A DNA stretch of 22,887 bases from a virus (taxonomy: Duplodnaviria > Heunggongvirae > Uroviricota > Caudoviricetes): the IMG/VR virus record IMGVR_UViG_2541047738_000004. The stretch is one strand, 5' to 3'. The notes beneath the pieces are model-generated. The model saw only the letters and a list, made by a program, of their open reading frames with translations. It was not told the origin of the DNA and made no database searches. Shown here piece by piece: positions 5,008 through 22,887 of the stretch; the first letter of the stretch is position 1; every line of letters begins with the position of its first letter. Made by a program: the position numbers and the translations under genes.

Positions 5008-5140
5008 TTTTTGGGACTCCTGGCTGATTAAGTATGTCGATAAGGCGTTTCCATCCGTCACGTAATTTACGGGTGATTCGTTCAAGTAAAGATTCGGAAG
5101 GGCAGCCAGCAACAGGCCACCCTGCAATGGCATATTGCAT
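4976..5140 (-). CDS. cIII: cIII, FtsH inhibitor (54 aa; below the ORF-track size cutoff)
   Basis: Hand translation of the minus strand gives [54 protein letters not shown], matching lambda cIII; overlaps the kil start as in lambda. Confidence 0.85.
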   Translation of the reverse strand: MQYAIAGWPVAGCPSESLLERITRKLRDGWKRLIDILNQPGVPKNGSNTYGYPD

Positions 5141-5212
5141 GGTGTGCTCCTTATTTATACATAACGAAAAACGCCTCGAGTGAAGCGTTATTGGTATGCG
5201 GTAACGCCGCGC

Positions 5213-10571: not shown

Positions 10572-11269
10572 AAAACATCGCCGCACAGATGGTTAACTTT
10601 GACCGTGAGCAGATGCGTCGGATCGCCAACAACATGCCGGAACAGTACGACGAAAAGCCACAGGTACAGCAGGTAGCGCAGATCATCAACGGTGTGTTCA
10701 GCCAGTTACTGGCAACTTTCCCGGCGAGCCTGGCTAACCGTGACCAGAACGAACTGAACGAAATCCGCCGCCAGTGGGTTCTGGCTTTCCGGGAAAACGG
10801 GATCACCACAATGGAACAGGTTAACGCAGGAATGCGCGTAGCCCGTCGGCAGAATCGACCATTTCTGCCATCACCCGGGCAGTTTGTTGCATGGTGCCGG
10901 GAAGAAGCATCCGTTATCGCCGGACTGCCAAACGTCAGCGAGCTGGTTGATATGGTTTACGAGTATTGCCGGAAGCGAGGCCTGTATCCGGATGCGGAGT
11001 CTTATCCGTGGAAATCAAATGCGCACTACTGGCTGGTTACCAACCTGTATCAGAACATGCGGGCCAATGCGCTTACTGATGCGGAATTACGCCGTAAGGC
11101 CGCAGATGAGCTTGTCCATATGACTGCGAGAATTAACCGTGGTGAGGCGATCCCTGAACCAGTAAAACAACTTCCTGTCATGGGCGGTAGACCTCTAAAT
11201 CGTGCACAGGCTCTGGCGAAGATCGCAGAAATCAAAGCTAAGTTCGGACTGAAAGGAGCAAGTGTATGA
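10568..11269 (+). CDS. P: Replication protein P (DnaB helicase loader)
   Basis: 233 aa matching lambda P (MKNIAAQMVNFDREQMRRIANNMPEQYDEKPQVQQ…). Confidence 0.97.
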   Translation: MKNIAAQMVNFDREQMRRIANNMPEQYDEKPQVQQVAQIINGVFSQLLATFPASLANRDQNELNEIRRQWVLAFRENGITTMEQVNAGMRVARRQNRPFLPSPGQFVAWCREEASVIAGLPNVSELVDMVYEYCRKRGLYPDAESYPWKSNAHYWLVTNLYQNMRANALTDAELRRKAADELVHMTARINRGEAIPEPVKQLPVMGGRPLNRAQALAKIAEIKAKFGLKGASV

Positions 11270-11556
11270 CGGGCAAAGAGGCAATTATTCATTACCTGGG
11301 GACGCATAATAGCTTCTGTGCGCCGGACGTTGCCGCGCTAACAGGCGCAACAGTAACCAGCATAAATCAGGCCGCGGCTAAAATGGCACGGGCAGGTCTT
11401 CTGGTTATCGAAGGTAAGGTCTGGCGAACGGTGTATTACCGGTTTGCTACCAGGGAAGAACGGGAAGGAAAGATGAGCACGAACCTGATTTTTAAGGAGT
11501 GTCGCCAGAGTGCCGCGATGAAACGGGTATTGGCGGTATATGGAGTTAAAAGATGA
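11266..11556 (+). CDS. ren: Ren (Rex-exclusion escape protein)
   Basis: 96 aa matching lambda Ren (MTGKEAIIHYLGTHNSFCAPDVAALTGATVTSINQAAAKMARAGLL…). Confidence 0.9.
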   Translation: MTGKEAIIHYLGTHNSFCAPDVAALTGATVTSINQAAAKMARAGLLVIEGKVWRTVYYRFATREEREGKMSTNLIFKECRQSAAMKRVLAVYGVKR

Positions 11557-11581
11557 CCATCTACATTACTGAGCTAATAAC

Positions 11582-11613
11582 AGGCCTGCTGGTAATCGCA
11601 GGCCTTTTTATTT
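11582..11613 (+). terminator. tR2-like rho-independent terminator
   Basis: 8-bp stem AGGCCTGC / GCAGGCCT with 8-nt loop, followed by TTTTTATTT, between ren and ninB. Confidence 0.55.
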
Positions 11614-11629
11614 GGGGGAGAGGGAAGTC

Positions 11630-12070
11630 ATGAAAAAACTAACCTTTGAAATTCGATCTCCAGCACATCAGCAAAACGCTATTCACGCAGTACAGCAAAT
11701 CCTTCCAGACCCAACCAAACCAATCGTAGTAACCATTCAGGAACGCAACCGCAGCTTAGACCAAAACAGGAAGCTATGGGCCTGCTTAGGTGACGTCTCT
11801 CGTCAGGTTGAATGGCATGGTCGCTGGCTGGATGCAGAAAGCTGGAAGTGTGTGTTTACCGCAGCATTAAAGCAGCAGGATGTTGTTCCTAACCTTGCCG
11901 GGAATGGCTTTGTGGTAATAGGCCAGTCAACCAGCAGGATGCGTGTAGGCGAATTTGCGGAGCTATTAGAGCTTATACAGGCATTCGGTACAGAGCGTGG
12001 CGTTAAGTGGTCAGACGAAGCGAGACTGGCTCTGGAGTGGAAAGCGAGATGGGGAGATCGGGCTGCATGA
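11630..12070 (+). CDS. ninB: NinB (Orf) recombination mediator
   Basis: 146 aa from ATG 11630 (RBS gggagagggaag) matching lambda NinB (MKKLTFEIRSPAHQQNAIHAVQQILPDP…). Confidence 0.9.
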   Translation: MKKLTFEIRSPAHQQNAIHAVQQILPDPTKPIVVTIQERNRSLDQNRKLWACLGDVSRQVEWHGRWLDAESWKCVFTAALKQQDVVPNLAGNGFVVIGQSTSRMRVGEFAELLELIQAFGTERGVKWSDEARLALEWKARWGDRAA

Positions 12071-12594
12071 CTATCAAATCAAATACGCCAGCACACGACA
12101 AGGACTGCTGGCAAACGCCGCTTTGGCTTTTTGATGCACTGGATATTGAGTTTGGATTCTGGCTGGATTCGGCAGCGAGCGACAAAAATGCTCTGTGTGC
12201 TCACTGGCTAACTGAGGCCGACGACGCGCTCAATTCTGAGTGGGTAAGCCACGGTGCAATCTGGAATAACCCACCGTACAGCAATATCAGGCCGTGGGTG
12301 GAAAAAGCCGCTGAGCAGTGCATACAACAGCGACAGACGGTAGTTATGCTTGTGCCAGAGGATATGTCAGTCGGATGGTTCAGCAAGGCTCTGGAGAGTG
12401 TCGACGAAGTTCGCATTATCACTGATGGACGGATTAATTTTATCGAACCATCGACAGGGCTGGAGAAGAAGGGAAACAGCAAAGGCTCCATGCTGCTGAT
12501 TTGGCGACCGTTCATCAGTCCTCGACGGATGTTTACTACCGTATCCAAAGCGGCATTGATGGCGATCGGGCAGGGCGTCAGGAGGGCGGCATGA
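12067..12594 (+). CDS. Phage DNA N6-adenine methyltransferase (Dam-type)
   Basis: 175 aa from ATG 12067 (ATGA overlap with ninB) containing the NPPY catalytic motif (…[18 protein letters not shown]…). Confidence 0.8.
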
Positions 12595-12767
12595 GGCGAC
12601 AGCGACGAAGTTTCACCGACATCATCTGCGAAAACTGCAAATACCTTCCAACGAAACGCTCCAGAAATAAACGCAAGCCAATCCCAAAAGAATCTGACGT
12701 AAAAACCTTCAATTACACAGCTCACCTGTGGGATATCCGGTGGCTAAGATATCGTGCGAGGAAATGA
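12591..12767 (+). CDS. ninE: NinE
   Basis: 58 aa ([58 protein letters not shown]) matching lambda/P22 NinE; RBS ggaggg. Confidence 0.8.
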
Positions 12768-13111
12768 CAATGGATTATTCACAGTTAAGTGATTTTGAAA
12801 TTAACAGAATGGTAGGAGACATAATTTTTAAAGGCCTTTGGGCAAGTAAACCGGAAACATCAGGGAATAACACCAACAAATGGTATTACGGAAATGCTGA
12901 TACAACTTTTGAGCCATTAAATCATTTGCCTGACTACTGCAATGATCCGAGCGCTTCATGGCCGATTATTGAGAAATACAGGATTTCTATCTTAGACCAG
13001 TTAACTGAATGGTGTGTGGATGCAAAAGGCGTAAGCCCAATATTTGATACCAGACCTCTCCGCGCCGCCATTATTGTCTTTCTCCTGATGCAGGAGGCCA
13101 ATAATGCTTAG
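12764..13111 (+). CDS. NinX-like nin-region protein (possible DUF2591)
   Basis: 115 aa from ATG 12764 overlapping the ninE stop. It occupies the position of P22 ninX between ninE and ninF; the family name is from memory only. Confidence 0.55.
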
Positions 13112-13298
13112 CCCATCTCAATCCCTTCAATACCTGAAAGGAAGCATAGAGCGGGCTTCAATGTGCACAGAGTGGATTCTATCTAGGTTTAGCGCATACA
13201 GAAGATTGCCGGTAAAGGGCATGCCAAGCAAGTCGATGCTGCATATGCAAAAGAATGCGCGCGGGAAGGTATGGCGAGAACGCAGGTTATCTGGCTGA
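13104..13298 (+). CDS. NinF-like protein (N-terminal ~18 aa match lambda NinF, then divergent)
   Basis: [18 protein letters not shown]… resembles the lambda NinF N-terminus; the remainder lacks the recalled Cys-rich NinF C-terminus. RBS caggagg. Confidence 0.5.
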
Positions 13299-13317
13299 AA
13301 GAGGGGGTAATTAAGGC

Positions 13318-13680
13318 GTGAATACTTACCACATCACACTACCCTGGCCTCCGAGCAATAATCGCTATTATCGCCATAATCGCGGGCGCACGCACGTCAG
13401 CGCAGAGGGGCAGGCATACCGCGATAACGTCGCCCGAATCATTAAAAACGCAATGCTGGATATCGGCCTGGCGATGCCTGTGAAAATCCGCATTGAGTGC
13501 CACATGCCGGATCGCCGTCGCCGTGACCTGGATAATCTGCAAAAAGCCGCTTTTGACGCACTCACCAAAGCAGGTTTCTGGCTGGATGATGCTCAGGTCG
13601 TTGATTACCGCGTTGTGAAGATGCCTGTTACCAAAGGTGGGAGGCTGGAATTGACCATCACCGAAATGGGGAATGAATGA
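13318..13680 (+). CDS. rusA: RusA Holliday-junction resolvase (GTG start)
   Basis: 120 aa matching RusA of DLP12/phage 82 ([35 protein letters not shown]…). Confidence 0.9.
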
Positions 13681-13817
13681 TGTTTGAGTTTTATATGGCA
13701 GAACGTCTTCGCCACCGCTGGGTGCGTCTGCGCTTATATCGTTTCCCCGGTTCTGTTTTGACCGATTACCGAATACTGAAGAATTACGCCAAAACACTGA
13801 CAGGAGCAGGAGTATGA
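13680..13817 (+). CDS. YlcG-like small protein (45 aa; below the ORF-track cutoff)
   Basis: Hand translation gives [45 protein letters not shown], overlapping the rusA stop; same position as DLP12 ylcG. Confidence 0.45.
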   Translation: MFEFYMAERLRHRWVRLRLYRFPGSVLTDYRILKNYAKTLTGAGV

Positions 13818-13902
13818 AGTCAGAGATAACAATCAACTAATACTGTTTTGCTGATTTTTGCTTGTAATTGGCGTTCTGGTCTGATTTTTGTGGAGTAAGT
13901 TG

Positions 13903-14280
13903 ATGCGTGATATTCAGATGGTTCTTGAGCGTTGGGGAGCGTGGGCGGCTAATAATCATGAAGATGTGACCTGGTCGTCCATTGCCGCCGGTTTTAAGGG
14001 ATTAATTCCTTCAAAAGTAAAATCTCGCCCGCAATGTTGTGACGATGACGCGATGATCATTTGCGGGTGCATGGCCCGTCTGAAAAATAACAACAGCGAT
14101 TTGCATGATTTGTTAGTGGACTATTATGTCGGCGGCATGACTTTTATGGCGCTTGCGCGTAAGCATGGTAGATCTGATTGTTGGATTGGCAGGATGCTCC
14201 AAAAAGCTGAGGGCGTAGTGGAGGGCATGCTGATGGTGTTGGATCTCAGATTGGAGATGGATGCTGATTGTTTGAGATAA
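13903..14280 (+). CDS. Q-like late antiterminator (DLP12 QuuD / phage 82 Q family)
   Basis: 125 aa from ATG 13903 ([26 protein letters not shown]…) resembling DLP12 QuuD as recalled; followed by pR'/tR'-like elements. Confidence 0.72.
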
Positions 14281-14309
14281 TTAAAGGAAAAGTTGCTGTC
14301 TGGTTATCA

Positions 14310-14336
14310 TTAGACTAATGTTTCAAATGTTAGAAT
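14310..14336 (+). promoter_or_regulatory. Candidate late promoter pR' (-35 TTAGAC, -10 TAGAAT) with qut region
   Basis: Sigma-70-like hexamers just downstream of Q and about 45 nt upstream of a strong terminator; the spacer is short (~15 bp), so placement is tentative. Confidence 0.3.
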
Positions 14337-14378
14337 CGCAACGTAGTTATGATCATATAACAGCTTGTTCCCTGATTT

Positions 14379-14409
14379 AGCCAGCCTCCCCAAAGGCTGG
14401 TTTTTTTTC
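14379..14409 (+). terminator. tR'-like rho-independent terminator
   Basis: Hairpin CCAGCC-tccccaaa-GGCTGG followed by a run of 8 T. Confidence 0.65.
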
Positions 14410-14436
14410 TAATAAGTATCAATCCGGTTAGGTATT

Positions 14437-14961
14437 TTATTGTTTGACCCATAATAGTTCATTGACATTGAATCCCAATTTTTGAGCAGTACGCACATAG
14501 TCTGCTTTTACATTATCTGGAATAGTTGGAGTCCGTGCCAGAATCCATAGGTATTCTCTGTTCGGACCACTGACAAGAGCATATTTATACTCATCATCCA
14601 GTTTGATTACATTATAGCCACCATAGAAGGGGCCAAAAAACGAAACCTTCAACGCTGCAGTTGTATTATCTCCTGTAAAGTATGCTTTACCTTCGCTCTC
14701 GCTCCATTTGTTTTTCGTTGGGTCATATCCACGATTAAGTACACTAATCCCTCCGTCGTTCCGTTTCCCATAAGTGGCGCTGACCTGTTCCAGACCACGT
14801 TCAAATCGGTTCTCAAGCCGAGCTATTTCATACCATTTTCCGAGGTAGCGGTTGGTGTCAAAATTTGTAATCGGCTGCACACCTTTAGGTGGTGTCGGGG
14901 CCTTACATGCTATCAGAGTGAAAGAGAGTGCAATGCCAGTCAACACAGGCCATAACTTCAT
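14437..14961 (-). CDS. blc: Blc-like outer-membrane lipoprotein (bacterial lipocalin)
   Basis: 174 aa with a lipoprotein signal peptide and lipobox (…FTLIACKAPTPP…) and strong similarity to E. coli Blc as recalled (…RYLGKWYEIARLENRFERGLE…KVSFFGPFYGGYNVI…YLWILARTPT…). Confidence 0.85.
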   Translation of the reverse strand: MKLWPVLTGIALSFTLIACKAPTPPKGVQPITNFDTNRYLGKWYEIARLENRFERGLEQVSATYGKRNDGGISVLNRGYDPTKNKWSESEGKAYFTGDNTTAALKVSFFGPFYGGYNVIKLDDEYKYALVSGPNREYLWILARTPTIPDNVKADYVRTAQKLGFNVNELLWVKQ

Positions 14962-15153
14962 AATATATCCTGTACTTTTGATAGTTGAGAGTAAGTATTA
15001 AAGATAGATGATTACTACCGATCACTTAAAGAACTTTCCTACTATATTAGGAATAGTCCATAACAAAAAAATTGTCAGTGATGACGGCAGAAAGGCAGTT
15101 TAGGTCGTGTACTACACTGTTAACCTGTTAATGAATTAGTCAAGGGGTAGGCA

Positions 15154-16113
15154 ATGATAAAAAAACCTGTCGTTGGGATCAGTGGTTGTTTGGCCGGTTC
15201 TTCTGTCCGTTTTGATGGTGGTCACAAAAGAGCTAGCTTTTTAATGGACAAATTACTGGAATGGGTAACATTCAAACCAGTATGTCCGGAAATGGCTATA
15301 GGGCTTCCAGTTCCGCGTCCTGCTCTACGTCTTGTTCGCTCGGCGCAAGGAAATATACGGATGTGTTTCAGCCACGACCAGAATGAGGATGTTACAGAGA
15401 AAATGACAGAGTTTAGTCGTTCTTATCTTGACAAATTAAAGGATGTATCGGGATTTGTGGTTTGTGCAAAATCTCCTAGCTGTGGTATGGAACGCGTGCG
15501 TGTATATGATGAAAATGGTAATCGTGGTCGTAAAGATGGAGTGGGACTATTTACGAGCACGTTGATGGAAAGGTTTTCCTGGCTACCGGTTGAAGAGGAT
15601 GGGCGACTACATGATCCAGTGCTTCGTGAAAACTTTGTTGAAAGAGTATTTGCTTTACATGAGCTCAATCATCTTTATAAAGCGAAATTATCAAGAAGGG
15701 AATTATTAGCTTTTCATAGCCGTTATAAGCTTCAGTTGTTGGCGCATAGCCAGGCCGGTTATAAAGAGATGGGGCCATTTGTGGCTGCAATACATGAGTG
15801 GGCAGACCTTGAATCATACTTTGAGGTGTATCGTGAGAAGCTGATGGCGATTCTCAGAAAACCTGCATCACGTAAAAATCACACGAATGTGCTGATGCAT
15901 ATACAGGGATATTTTAGTAACTGCTTAAATACACGTCAGCGTAAAGAGTTGAGCGATGTTATACTTAACTATCGAGCTGGCACGCTACCTCTTCTTGCGC
16001 CATTAACTTTGCTGAAGCATTACTTGGCAGAGTATCCTGATGATTATTTGCTTATACAGAATTACTTCCACCCCTATCCTGATGAACTGGCTCTAAGACT
16101 CTTGGTGAACTAG
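15154..16113 (+). CDS. DUF523/DUF1722 fusion protein (TudS thiouracil-desulfurase-like N-domain, YbgA-like C-domain)
   Basis: 319 aa; the N-terminus VGISGCLAG…VRFDGGHK resembles the Cys-containing DUF523/TudS signature, and the C-terminal half resembles the YbgA/DUF1722 helical domain. Family assignment is from memory. Confidence 0.75.
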   Translation: MIKKPVVGISGCLAGSSVRFDGGHKRASFLMDKLLEWVTFKPVCPEMAIGLPVPRPALRLVRSAQGNIRMCFSHDQNEDVTEKMTEFSRSYLDKLKDVSGFVVCAKSPSCGMERVRVYDENGNRGRKDGVGLFTSTLMERFSWLPVEEDGRLHDPVLRENFVERVFALHELNHLYKAKLSRRELLAFHSRYKLQLLAHSQAGYKEMGPFVAAIHEWADLESYFEVYREKLMAILRKPASRKNHTNVLMHIQGYFSNCLNTRQRKELSDVILNYRAGTLPLLAPLTLLKHYLAEYPDDYLLIQNYFHPYPDELALRLLVN

Positions 16114-16422
16114 GCGTTTGGAATGCACCAACAAGATGATTTTCTCCTTAGAGAATGTTTACAATCGTAAAAACTTCACTATGATATCTATAGTTGTACA
16201 GTTTGTAAAAAAATTCGGTTCATGCTTAAGGTAATGTTAATATGTTAATTAATGATTAATAATCAAGCAAGCCAAAAATAGTTCTGTTTAATCTAGTATT
16301 ACATAAATATTTTAAAGAAAATATCAAAGTTCATGATGATATAATGAGGTTTTTCTCATTGAAAATATGGCAATTTTAATATTTCCACCTATACTTACTT
16401 AACTCAAATCTAATTATGTCAG

Positions 16423-17163
16423 GTGGATGGTATGCCATGCATATGTTCTATCATTTTGGTTTTGAACTCGTTTGATATCCGGCTTGGTAAAGAAAAAATC
16501 TCTCTAAAAAAAGGAAGTGTTGTTGCTATAGAATACAATTTAAAAGTTTTCTTTTCTTCAAATAAAGATAATATAATGATCGTGGATATTGAAGAGAAAA
16601 CAGTTAATGACTTCTTTAAAAACAATACACTCTCACCTTTTTCTGTAAGAAGATTTTATTCAGCATACTTGATAGTAAACTGTACAGACTATTCATTGTT
16701 AAAGAACTTGATAGGTTGCTTGAATTGTGATGGTGAAACTACGGCTGTAGTTAAAAATTCAATATTATTTGCATGTCTTGCTATTTTATCCTCGGAAAAA
16801 ATGTTTCAGAGTTTTTTGTTTGGGTGTCTTAATAGTTTAGGAAGCAAAGTTAAGGCTATTATTCACTCGGACATATCTGCAGCATGGAGACTTTGTGATA
16901 TTTCTTCAAGACTATGTCTGAGTGAAAGTTTGTTAAAAAGAAAACTAAAACACGAAGGCTTATCATTTAGCAAATTAATTCTTGAAGAACGAATGGTGAT
17001 GGCTGAAAGGTTATTAAGCTACAATTTCTATCCTGTTGGGAAAGTTGCTAAAATATGTGGTTATGAAAGCGCGTCATATTTTATAAGTGTTTTCAGAAGA
17101 TATTTTGGTGTTCCCCCCCATGAATATTCATCAAGATTTTTTTTAGAAAAAGGCAAGATGTAA
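16423..17163 (+). CDS. AraC-family transcriptional regulator (Rns/AggR/GadX/AppY-like); start uncertain (GTG 16423 or ATG 16432)
   Basis: C-terminal AraC HTH (…VGKVAKICGYESASYFISVFRRYFGVPPHEY…); markedly AT-rich coding sequence preceded by ~300 bp of AT-rich non-coding DNA. Confidence 0.75.
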   Translation: MDGMPCICSIILVLNSFDIRLGKEKISLKKGSVVAIEYNLKVFFSSNKDNIMIVDIEEKTVNDFFKNNTLSPFSVRRFYSAYLIVNCTDYSLLKNLIGCLNCDGETTAVVKNSILFACLAILSSEKMFQSFLFGCLNSLGSKVKAIIHSDISAAWRLCDISSRLCLSESLLKRKLKHEGLSFSKLILEERMVMAERLLSYNFYPVGKVAKICGYESASYFISVFRRYFGVPPHEYSSRFFLEKGKM

Positions 17164-17225
17164 CGTGATGCGTTTTGATGATTTTGTAATTTTCATATTT
17201 GATGATTATATGATGCTTTCAGCTA

Positions 17226-17252
17226 CGCCAGAATAATCGCTGGCGTTTTTCT
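17226..17252 (+). terminator. Putative rho-independent terminator after the AraC-family gene
   Basis: Hairpin CGCCAG-aataatcg-CTGGCG followed by TTTTTCTTTT. Confidence 0.45.
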
Positions 17253-17330
17253 TTTCTAATGTAACTTCTGTATCTTTCCCTCTTTCATTCCAAACCGTGT
17301 ACACCATCCGTTATTCGCGGAGGTGAGGCT

Positions 17331-17546
17331 ATGAAATCCATGGACAAGTTAACAACGGGCATTGCCTACGGCACCTCTGCAGGCAGTGCTGGCTACTGGT
17401 TTTTACAGTGGCTTGATCAGGTCAGTCCGTCACAGTGGGCGGCGATTGGAGTGCTTGGAAGCCTTGTGTTGGGTTTTCTCACTTATCTGACAAACCTTTA
17501 TTTCAAGATTAAAGAAGATAAGCGTAAGGCTGCGAGAGGTGAATAA
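17331..17546 (+). CDS. S: Phage-21-type class II holin / pinholin (dual start Met1/Met4)
   Basis: 71 aa ([71 protein letters not shown]) near-identical to S21 as recalled; RBS ggaggtgagg. Confidence 0.92.
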
Positions 17547-18043
17547 TGTCGCCATCATTACGCAAGGCTGTAGCAGCTGCTATTGGTGGTGGGGCTGTTG
17601 CCATAGCGTCTGTGCTCATCACTGGTCCGAGTGGTGACGATGGTCTGGAAGGTGTCAGCTACATACCATATAAAGATATTGTTGGTGTATGGACTGTATG
17701 TCACGGGCATACAGGAAAAGACATCATGCTCGGTAAAACGTATACCAAAGCAGAATGCAAAGCACTCTTGAATAAAGACCTTGCCACTGTCGCCAGACAA
17801 ATTAACCCGTACATCAAAGTCGATATACCGGAAACAACGCGCGGCGCTCTTTACTCATTCGTTTACAACGTGGGTGCTGGCAATTTCAGAACATCGACGC
17901 TTCTTCGCAAAATAAACCAGGGCGATATCAAAGGCGCATGTGATCAGTTACGTCGCTGGACATATGCTGGCGGTAAGCAATGGAAAGGTCTCATGACTCG
18001 TCGTGAGATTGAGCGTGAAATCTGTTTGTGGGGTCAGCAATGA
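17546..18043 (+). CDS. R: SAR endolysin (T4-lysozyme-fold muramidase with N-terminal signal-anchor-release domain)
   Basis: 165 aa with an N-terminal Gly/Ala-rich weakly hydrophobic segment ([20 protein letters not shown]), matching phage 21 R21 / DLP12 RrrD. Confidence 0.92.
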
Positions 18044-18501
18044 ACAGAGTAACCGCGATTATCTCCGCTCTGGTTATCTGCATCATCGTCTGCCTGTCAT
18101 GGGCTGTTAATCATTACCGTGATAACGCCATTACCTACAAAGCCCAGCGCGACAAAAATGCCAGAGAACTGAAGCTGGCGAACGCGGCAATTACTGACAT
18201 GCAGATGCGTCAGCGTGATGTTGCTGCGCTCGATGCAAAATACACGAAGGAGTTAGCTGATGCGAAAGCTGAAAATGATGCTCTGCGTGATGATGTTGCC
18301 GCTGGTCGTCGTCGGTTGCACATCAAAGCAGTCTGTCAGTCAGTGCGTGAAGCCACCACCGCCTCCGGCGTGGATAATGCAGCCTCCCCCCGACTGGCAG
18401 ACACCGCTGAACGGGATTATTTCACCCTCAGAGAGAGGCTGATCACGATGCAAAAACAACTGGAAGGAACCCAGAAGTATATTAATGAGCAGTGCAGATA
18501 G
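18040..18501 (+). CDS. Rz: Rz spanin, inner-membrane subunit (i-spanin)
   Basis: 153 aa from ATG 18040 ([29 protein letters not shown]…) matching lambda Rz; ATGA overlap with the endolysin stop. Confidence 0.9.
18260..18442 (+). CDS. Rz1: Rz1 spanin, outer-membrane lipoprotein subunit (o-spanin), embedded in Rz in +1 frame
   Basis: 60 aa with lipobox [10 protein letters not shown] and proline-rich mature region (…[21 protein letters not shown]…), entirely within Rz. Confidence 0.85.
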
Positions 18502-18532
18502 AGCTGCCCATATCGATGGGCAACTCATGCAA

Positions 18533-18826
18533 TTATTGTGAGCAATAGACACGCGCTTCCAGCGGAGTATAAATGCCTAAAGTAATAAAACCGAGCAATC
18601 CATTTACGAATGTTTGCTGGGTTTCTGTTTTAACAACATTTTCTGCGCCGCCACAAATTTTGGCTGCATCAACAGTTTTCTCCTGTCCAATTCCCGAAAC
18701 GAAGAAGTGATGGGTGATGGTTTCCTTTGGTGTTACTGCTGTCGGTTTGTTTCCAACAGTAAACGTCTGTTGAGCACATCCTGTAATAAGCATTGCCAGA
18801 GCGGCAGAAAACAACATTTTTTTCAT
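18533..18826 (-). CDS. bor: Bor lipoprotein (serum-resistance protein)
   Basis: 97 aa from internal ATG (MKKMLFSAALAMLITGCAQQTFTVGNKPTAV…) matching lambda Bor; the ORF-track N-terminal extension is rejected. Confidence 0.9.
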   Translation of the reverse strand: MKKMLFSAALAMLITGCAQQTFTVGNKPTAVTPKETITHHFFVSGIGQEKTVDAAKICGGAENVVKTETQQTFVNGLLGFITLGIYTPLEARVYCSQ

Positions 18827-19185
18827 CTTATTATCCTGCATTGTTAAAAACGGCAGAATCCTATGTGACAACAATTAAACGATAGTTAAATGGATTGATG
18901 AAAATTAAAACTATATAGGTGGATGCTCAGCCTATTGGAGGAGGGGGGCACTCAGAATCCTGTGGAATGAAATAAACCGCTCTTTCTGTCCATTACCCTT
19001 TTAGCTGCGCTGTATCGTCGCCGTATTCCCGCATTAACCATGACCGTAGCCCGACGGGGAATTCCTTCTGCGTGAGTGTGCGGGAATAATCAAAAACGAT
19101 GCACACCGGGTTTTACTGTGCTGACAGACGCAGGGTTACCCTCATAGTCGCTTTTCCGGTGCGATGGTGGAAGAAACCGGGATGT

Positions 19186-19380
19186 TTATTCATCATCACT
19201 TTGGATTGATGTACATGCTCTCTTTTCTGACGTTAGTCTCCGACGGCAGGCTTCAATGACCCAGGCTGAGAAATTCCCAGACCCTTTTTGCTCAAGAGCG
19301 ATGTTAATTTGTTCAATCATTTGGTTAGGAAAGCGGATGTTGCGGGTTGTTGTTCTGCGGGTTCTGTTCTTAGTTGACAT
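19186..19380 (-). CDS. YlcI-like small protein (possible DUF3950; lambda right-end small ORF)
   Basis: 64 aa (MSTKNRTRRTTTRNIRFPNQMIEQINIALEQKGSGNFSAWVIEACRRRL…), conserved next to cos in lambda/DLP12 as recalled. Confidence 0.65.
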   Translation of the reverse strand: MSTKNRTRRTTTRNIRFPNQMIEQINIALEQKGSGNFSAWVIEACRRRLTSEKRACTSIQSDDE

Positions 19381-19539
19381 GAGGTTGCCCCGTATTCAGT
19401 GTCGCTGATTTGTATTGTCTGAAGTTGTTTTTACGTTAAGTTGATGCAGATCAATTAATACGATACCTGCGTCATAATTGATTATTTGACGTGGTTTGAT
19501 GGCGTAGATGCACGTTGTGACATGTAGATGATAATTATT

Positions 19540-19768
19540 ATCATTTTGTGGGTCCTTTCCGGCGATCCGACAGGTTACGGGGCGGCGACCTCGCGGGTTT
19601 TCGCTATTTATGAAAATTTTCCGGTTTAAGGTGTTTCCGTTCTTCTTCGTCGTAACTTAATGTATTTATTTAAAATACCCCCTGAAAAGAAAGGAAACGA
19701 CAGGTGCTGAAAGCGAGCTTTTTGGCCTCTGTCGTTTCCTTTCTCTGTTTTTGTCCGTGGAATGAGCA
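19540..19768 (+). other. cos: cos site: cosQ, cosN (12-nt cohesive end GGGCGGCGACCT at 19580..19591) and cosB
   Basis: …CCGACAGGTTACG|GGGCGGCGACCTCGCGGGTTTTCGCTATTTATGAAAATTTTCCGG… matches the lambda right-end/left-end junction as recalled. Confidence 0.88.
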
Positions 19769-20314: not shown

Positions 20315-22878
<2,564 letters not shown>

Positions 22879-22887
22879 GAGGCACCT

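Follow-up and report, generated by a model that had tools for sequence, protein, structure and literature searches.

A phage-borne rudS gene for a TudS-DUF1722 fusion protein in the late region of a lambdoid Escherichia coli prophage

What is a protein resembling thiouracil desulfurases doing in the late region of a lambdoid phage, and who benefits from it? The window (the whole stretch of DNA analysed here, 22,887 nucleotides) encodes such a protein in a gene, rudS, located exactly at positions 15154–16113 of the forward strand. The open reading frame starts with an ATG, encodes 319 amino acids, and has a Shine-Dalgarno-like AAGGGG 6–11 nucleotides 5' of its start. From position 10800 to 19579, the window shows no mismatch with the genome of Escherichia phage 1H12 (NC_049947) over 8780 bases, and a 3.8-kb stretch spanning rudS is 100% identical in 1H12 and in ten sibling 'Lambda_ev/1H12' phage genomes. 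The gene itself equals H3V29_gp66 of phage 1H12 (YP_009909557.1; 960 of 960 nucleotides, 319 of 319 amino acids). This identity, together with the antiterminator gene Q upstream and a P21-type holin gene S downstream, bears out the original prediction that the gene is phage-borne, and the open reading frame is confirmed as a real gene carried by a phage.

The protein has a name and a published activity. Jamontas et al. 2024 (NAR 52:10543; PMC11417400) list it in their Table 1 as RudS_vir, with Cys12, Cys44, and Cys110, and the protein described there does not differ in sequence from the one encoded in the window; for the published work, the gene was synthesised and expressed from a plasmid. 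Enzyme and substrate are therefore already in print for exactly this sequence, and the mechanism for its family, and the finding does not reveal a new type of system. What is new here is the prophage context at icd, the organisation as a moron cassette, the lack of a MerR-type regulator, and the presence of the gene in about 20% of complete E. coli genomes.

Profile searches agree with the fusion of DUF523 and DUF1722 domains that had been predicted, in part, from an N-terminal signature (motif VGISGCLAGSSVRFDGGHK, found at amino acids 7–25). The TudS or 2-thiouracil desulfurase catalytic domain (DUF523; Pfam PF04463, 2-thiour_desulf) covers amino acids 7–149 (positions 15172–15600, forward strand), with 137.7 bits for a cut-off of 34.7 (E 3.6e-40), and the DUF1722 domain (PF08349), which binds the tRNA anticodon arm according to PMC11417400, covers amino acids 192–309 (positions 15727–16080, forward strand), with 138.8 bits for a cut-off of 22.5 (E 1.3e-40). 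Both matches are full length (profile positions 1–141 of 141 and 1–117 of 117) and well over the curated thresholds, which rules out a chance resemblance. RudS proteins were defined in PMC11417400 by a TudS domain N-terminal of a DUF1722 domain, each with E < 0.001 and more than 80 aligned amino acids, and the order, E values, and lengths of the Pfam matches place the 319-residue protein within this definition.

The two related families with a single domain do not accommodate it. Stand-alone TudS enzymes have about 150–170 amino acids and allow growth on 2- and 4-thiouracil; the one of known crystal structure (6Z92) has a catalytic domain homologous to that of RudS_vir, but it consists of this domain only (about 166 amino acids) and acts on free bases and nucleotides, whereas RudS_vir adds DUF1722. 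The YbgA protein of E. coli (b0707, about 169 amino acids) is a stand-alone DUF1722 protein without a catalytic domain that resembles the C-terminal half of RudS_vir. The NCBIfam equivalog model for YbgA (NF007549) matches only amino acids 160–315 of the phage protein (model positions 9–164 of 169), with 189.6 bits for a cut-off of 237, which excludes it from that class, even if PGAP labels the phage protein as 'YbgA family protein'. In E. coli, the YbgA gene lies upstream of the photolyase gene phr.

The residues expected at the active site are all present. Cys12, Cys44, and Cys110 align with C10, C43, and C104 of the TudS structure sequence 6Z92 (E 8.9e-5 with a single sequence, 1e-5 with a profile), and so do the CxxG, CPE, and SPSCG motifs, in line with the cluster-ligating cysteines that had been anticipated. 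The three cysteines, as well as E46, R55, S107, and S109, are invariant among 26 relatives (71–92% identity), an alignment drawn from the matches listed, i.e., from the 120 closest proteins. The last four residues correspond to E51, R60, S111, and S113 of RudS_KT, the protein of Pseudomonas putida (PP_0741), and mutating any of these four abolishes the activity of RudS_KT (PMC11417400). Two other positions differ: in place of Tyr25 and Asn26 of RudS_KT, RudS_vir and all enterobacterial relatives have Phe20 and Asp21. An AlphaFold2 model built on the 26-sequence alignment was poor (mean pLDDT 61.8, pTM 0.47) because the alignment is too shallow, and the geometry of the cysteine triad in this model is uninformative; the best match in a Foldseek search of the PDB with it had an E value of 0.86, which is equally uninformative.

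By analogy with the family literature, Cys12, Cys44, and Cys110 would hold a [4Fe-4S] cluster whose free fourth iron would bind the thione sulfur of 4-thiouridine at position 8 of the tRNA (s4U8). Arg55, Ser107, and Ser109 would position Glu46, which may activate a water molecule, so that s4U would be converted to U, with a [4Fe-5S] intermediate on the way to sulfide release. Docking of the tRNA anticodon arm would fall to the C-terminal DUF1722 domain, which would thereby give specificity for tRNA over free bases.

Published assays concern precisely this conversion. Plasmid overexpression of six RudS orthologs in E. coli BL21(DE3), with RudS_vir among them, lowered s4U in the tRNA by 4.7- to 26-fold across the set, and neither stand-alone TudS nor E. 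coli YbgA produced such a drop (PMC11417400). Within the set, RudS_vir was less active than RudS_ST despite a similar protein level (PMC11417400). RudS_vir shares with RudS_KT and with RudS_ST (STM1389/ORF319, Salmonella SPI-2 region) the TudS-DUF1722 architecture, the three cysteines, the Glu/Arg/Ser/Ser set, and the lowering of s4U. Their genes are chromosomal, whereas RudS_vir is encoded in the late region of a phage, together with a lipocalin and an AraC-like protein and without a MerR neighbour.

The substrates that had been proposed for the protein were thiolated nucleobases or nucleotides, with s4U in tRNA as an example. The latter is the published activity, but the free bases fare poorly: no RudS used 2-thiouracil, and RudS_vir let 4-thiouracil feed a uracil auxotroph only after a lag (PMC11417400). 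Work on the nucleobase or nucleotide pool would thus be at most a side activity. One could still imagine an enzyme of salvage or detoxification that, like TudS, returns free thiolated bases or nucleotides (4-thiouracil, 4-thio-UMP) to the uracil pool and does not act as an eraser on tRNA. The catalytic domain is after all a full-length TudS domain, stand-alone TudS enzymes recycle 4-thio-UMP (PMC10611767), and the lag of RudS_vir on 4-thiouracil was the shortest among the RudS proteins tested (PMC11417400). Yet none of these proteins equalled TudS in supporting growth, the authors do not regard thiouracils as primary substrates, and it is the fused DUF1722 that confers the action on tRNA, since TudS alone left tRNA s4U unlowered (PMC11417400). 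We regard such a role as highly improbable.

The surroundings of the gene define its carrier. Positions 1–164 of the window are the 3' end of icd, which indicates a prophage inserted at the icd site, and the window, a lambdoid prophage, is identical to the chromosome of E. coli ST3 from position 1 through 22792. The order of genes around rudS is Q, a tR'-like terminator, blc on the reverse strand, rudS, an AT-rich spacer, an araC-like gene, a hairpin, and then the lysis genes for holin S, endolysin, and Rz. The gene of the antiterminator Q, the activator of the late genes, lies directly upstream of the cassette (13903–14280, forward strand; Phage_antitermQ, E 2.5e-51) and is followed by an intrinsic terminator (14379–14410, forward strand), found by a terminator scan, whose 9-bp stem and T run suggest a tR'-like function. 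Divergent from rudS lies the gene of a Blc-type outer-membrane lipocalin lipoprotein (14437–14961, reverse strand; Lipocalin_2, E 2.2e-43), with 315.5 bits for the NCBIfam Blc model (cut-off 267). The third gene of the cassette (16432–17163, forward strand; HTH_18 and HTH_AraC) encodes an AraC-family regulator whose best NCBIfam matches are YdeO and GadX, both below cut-off; it has 31% GC, and the 318-bp spacer ahead of it has 27%. The same scan found a hairpin that may act as a second terminator (17225–17254, forward strand) ahead of the gene of the P21-type class II holin S (17331–17546, forward strand; Phage_holin_2_1, E 3e-35), which starts the lysis cassette and sets the downstream boundary of the cargo.

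This cargo varies between phages. The related phages PhiR30_1, mEp332, and Turner match the Q and holin ends only (about 20% of the query) and hold other genes in between, e.g., one for OmpD. Since rudS is flanked by Q and the lysis genes and is missing from related phages with similar ends, blc, rudS, and the araC-like gene can be regarded as a moron cassette. In Stx phages, stx occupies the corresponding late position, and AppY, PatE, and PsrB are prophage-encoded AraC-like regulators, of the same general class as the one in the cassette, that rewire acid resistance. The blc gene is a common moron among lambda-like phages of the infant gut. Taking domains, residues, published activity, and context together, we put at about 0.9 the probability that RudS_vir is a [4Fe-4S] tRNA s4U desulfidase (an 'eraser') carried as a moron in a 1H12-type lambdoid prophage at icd. 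Two side observations concern the cassette. Homologues of the AraC-like protein, about 52% identical, are found in other lambdoid coliphages, and the two terminator-like hairpins (14379–14402 and 17225–17246, forward strand) lie at the two ends of the cassette, where the second could keep transcription of the moron genes in lysogens from reaching the lysis genes.

Where might the cassette have come from? The nearest chromosomal relatives of rudS are about 76% identical and occur in Citrobacter, Klebsiella, Buttiauxella, Serratia, and others. Their genetic organisation differs between genera. In Serratia, the order is amine oxidase, DUF1365, CFA synthase, an ORF without a Pfam match, DUF3833, and rudS, and the ORF pattern is the same in Yersinia and Pectobacterium. 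Shewanella has a ChrR-like gene, rudS, photolyase, SnoaL, and amine oxidase, with a similar ORF pattern in Vibrio. Kosakonia and Enterobacter have blc on the reverse strand, a MerR/MlrA-like regulator, and rudS, and in Kluyvera chromosomes, blc and rudS are directly divergent, as in the phage. The association of chromosomal rudS with photolyase, ChrR, CFA synthase, and amine oxidase points to light or photo-oxidative stress and fits the link between RudS_KT and UVA. Because blc and rudS are also paired in enterobacterial chromosomes, they look like a co-captured piece of such a cluster, and, from the comparison of these loci, the phage appears to carry a blc-rudS fragment of it, minus the MerR regulator and its palindrome. 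The set of chromosomal loci did not include the Salmonella STM1389 locus (SPI-2 ORF319/ORF242), which the genome scan did not return.

We also considered whether the pairing of the araC-like gene with rudS copies a chromosomal module of rudS and its regulator. This was rejected, since no close AraC homologue lies beside rudS in the 72 chromosomal loci, where the only AraC-like matches are weak (32–35% identity over 80–104 amino acids, in 5 of the 72). The low-GC araC-like gene was thus added separately.

The lack of a MerR-type regulator bears on the expression of the gene. The chromosomal genes for RudS_KT and RudS_ST are reportedly under MerR/LitR-type light-responsive control, and in Pseudomonas a photolyase gene adjoins. 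The phage has no MerR gene, the lipocalin gene is the sole neighbour kept, and the intergenic region between blc and rudS lacks the operator-like palindrome found in Enterobacter and Buttiauxella. Hence, light induction of phage rudS should not be assumed. Aligned with those of the chromosomal loci, this region shows a mean column identity of 42% and no conserved element, and a scan with promoter consensus sequences 5' of rudS gave 12 sites, none of them convincing, compared with 11.2 ± 3.4 in shuffled sequence. Since rudS lies 3' of Q and of the tR'-like terminator, it may be expressed mainly from the late lytic transcript, which would suggest a role centred on the phage. A rudS gene without a MerR-type regulator is in any case a handy natural case of an s4U eraser expressed from a phage.

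The distribution of the gene gives a different indication of who benefits from it. Among 5426 complete E. coli genomes, 1064 (about 20%) encode rudS at a coverage of at least 80%; the best matches comprise 110 with at least 99% identity and 971 with about 92%. The whole stretch from Q through blc, rudS, and the araC-like gene to the holin gene is conserved in 941 genomes. In E. coli HS, the rudS cassette lies inside a defective Qin-like prophage, and this arrangement is found in at least 276 genomes. Between two E. coli alleles of rudS that have diverged by about 8%, dN/dS is 0.11–0.14. That rudS has stayed intact under purifying selection even where the prophage has decayed speaks for an advantage to the host or lysogen more than for a function confined to lytic growth, and the most likely role of prophage rudS, as we infer it, is lysogenic conversion. 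Lower tRNA s4U would blunt UVA-induced cross-linking between s4U8 and C13, the growth delay, and the stringent response, and the benefit would fall to E. coli strains that otherwise hold only the stand-alone DUF1722 protein YbgA. Lowering s4U with RudS_KT cut the UVA growth delay of E. coli to about 60 min, compared with about 105 min otherwise. That this evidence of UVA protection comes from RudS_KT and not from RudS_vir would, in our analysis, count against lysogenic conversion here.

Could the gene be neutral instead? If blc and rudS had been taken up jointly from the chromosome of an enterobacterium and rudS had since been hitch-hiking in a successful prophage lineage, with no effect at its native expression, the mere 76% identity of the chromosomal relatives and the blc-rudS pairs in chromosomes would be consistent with a single old capture, and the promoter scan, which identified no promoter for rudS, would fit as well. 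We deem this quite unlikely in view of the dN/dS values, of the conservation of every catalytic residue, and of 1064 genomes with an intact open reading frame, in part within decayed prophages, where neutral genes should erode.

A further possibility is a use during the lytic cycle. In such a scenario, rudS would be transcribed late in a Q-dependent manner, as for stx, and s4U would be erased from host tRNA late in infection, either sustaining or reprogramming translation, e.g., after induction by UV, or evading a host defence directed at tRNA. Lambdoid prophages are UV-inducible, rudS is on the strand of the late transcript with Q and the tR'-like terminator upstream and holin S downstream, and the phage gene is without the MerR regulator seen beside some chromosomal relatives. 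Against them stands the fact that purifying selection has kept the cassette intact in a defective Qin-like prophage. In addition, taking s4U away cannot mend a tRNA once it has been cross-linked, and RudS made only after UV would presumably come too late. A literature search for phage- or defence-related roles of s4U or DUF1722 yielded nothing beyond the RudS paper and turned up no defence system keyed to s4U. We consider the lytic use unlikely, and the speculation in the original prediction about phage–host conflict finds no support in these data.

Whether as a lysogenic-conversion factor or as a late phage tool, it is possible, if still doubtful, that prophage RudS at native levels rewrites tRNA s4U in about one-fifth of E. 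coli. If so, near-UV growth delay, the triggering of the stringent response, and the s4U-dependent stability of tRNA would vary among E. coli with their prophage content, and RudS_vir would be the first virus-carried eraser of a tRNA modification with a demonstrated physiological role. It would also mean that the statement that E. coli lacks RudS, when based on K-12 and BL21, misdescribes the species. This statement, made in PMC11417400 and in a 2026 review, is true for K-12 and BL21 and false for the species overall. Anyone who works with non-laboratory E. coli, be it on the UVA response, on tRNA modification, or on s4U-based methods to label or cross-link RNA, should therefore reckon with prophage rudS.

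Some minor observations complete the description of the window and of the cassette. In the window as a whole, searches with Rfam and for tRNAs found nothing near rudS, their sole match being the Lambda cIII thermoregulator (5095–5153, reverse strand; 88.5 bits, E 1e-20). Just 3' of Rz, at about 18533–18826 on the reverse strand (20734–21027 in L002), lies a gene for an Iss/Bor-like serum-survival lipoprotein, a common moron of lambdoid phages. The last 95 bases or so of the window (22793–22887) diverge from the ST3 chromosome, which probably marks a mosaic boundary within the terminase/portal region. Finally, fragments of the E. coli-type arrangement of Q, blc, rudS, araC-like, and holin genes (88–98% identity) were found in two contigs (L056 and L075) binned in a MAG labelled 'Candidatus Nanosynbacter', and they are most likely E. 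coli prophage DNA introduced as a binning contaminant.
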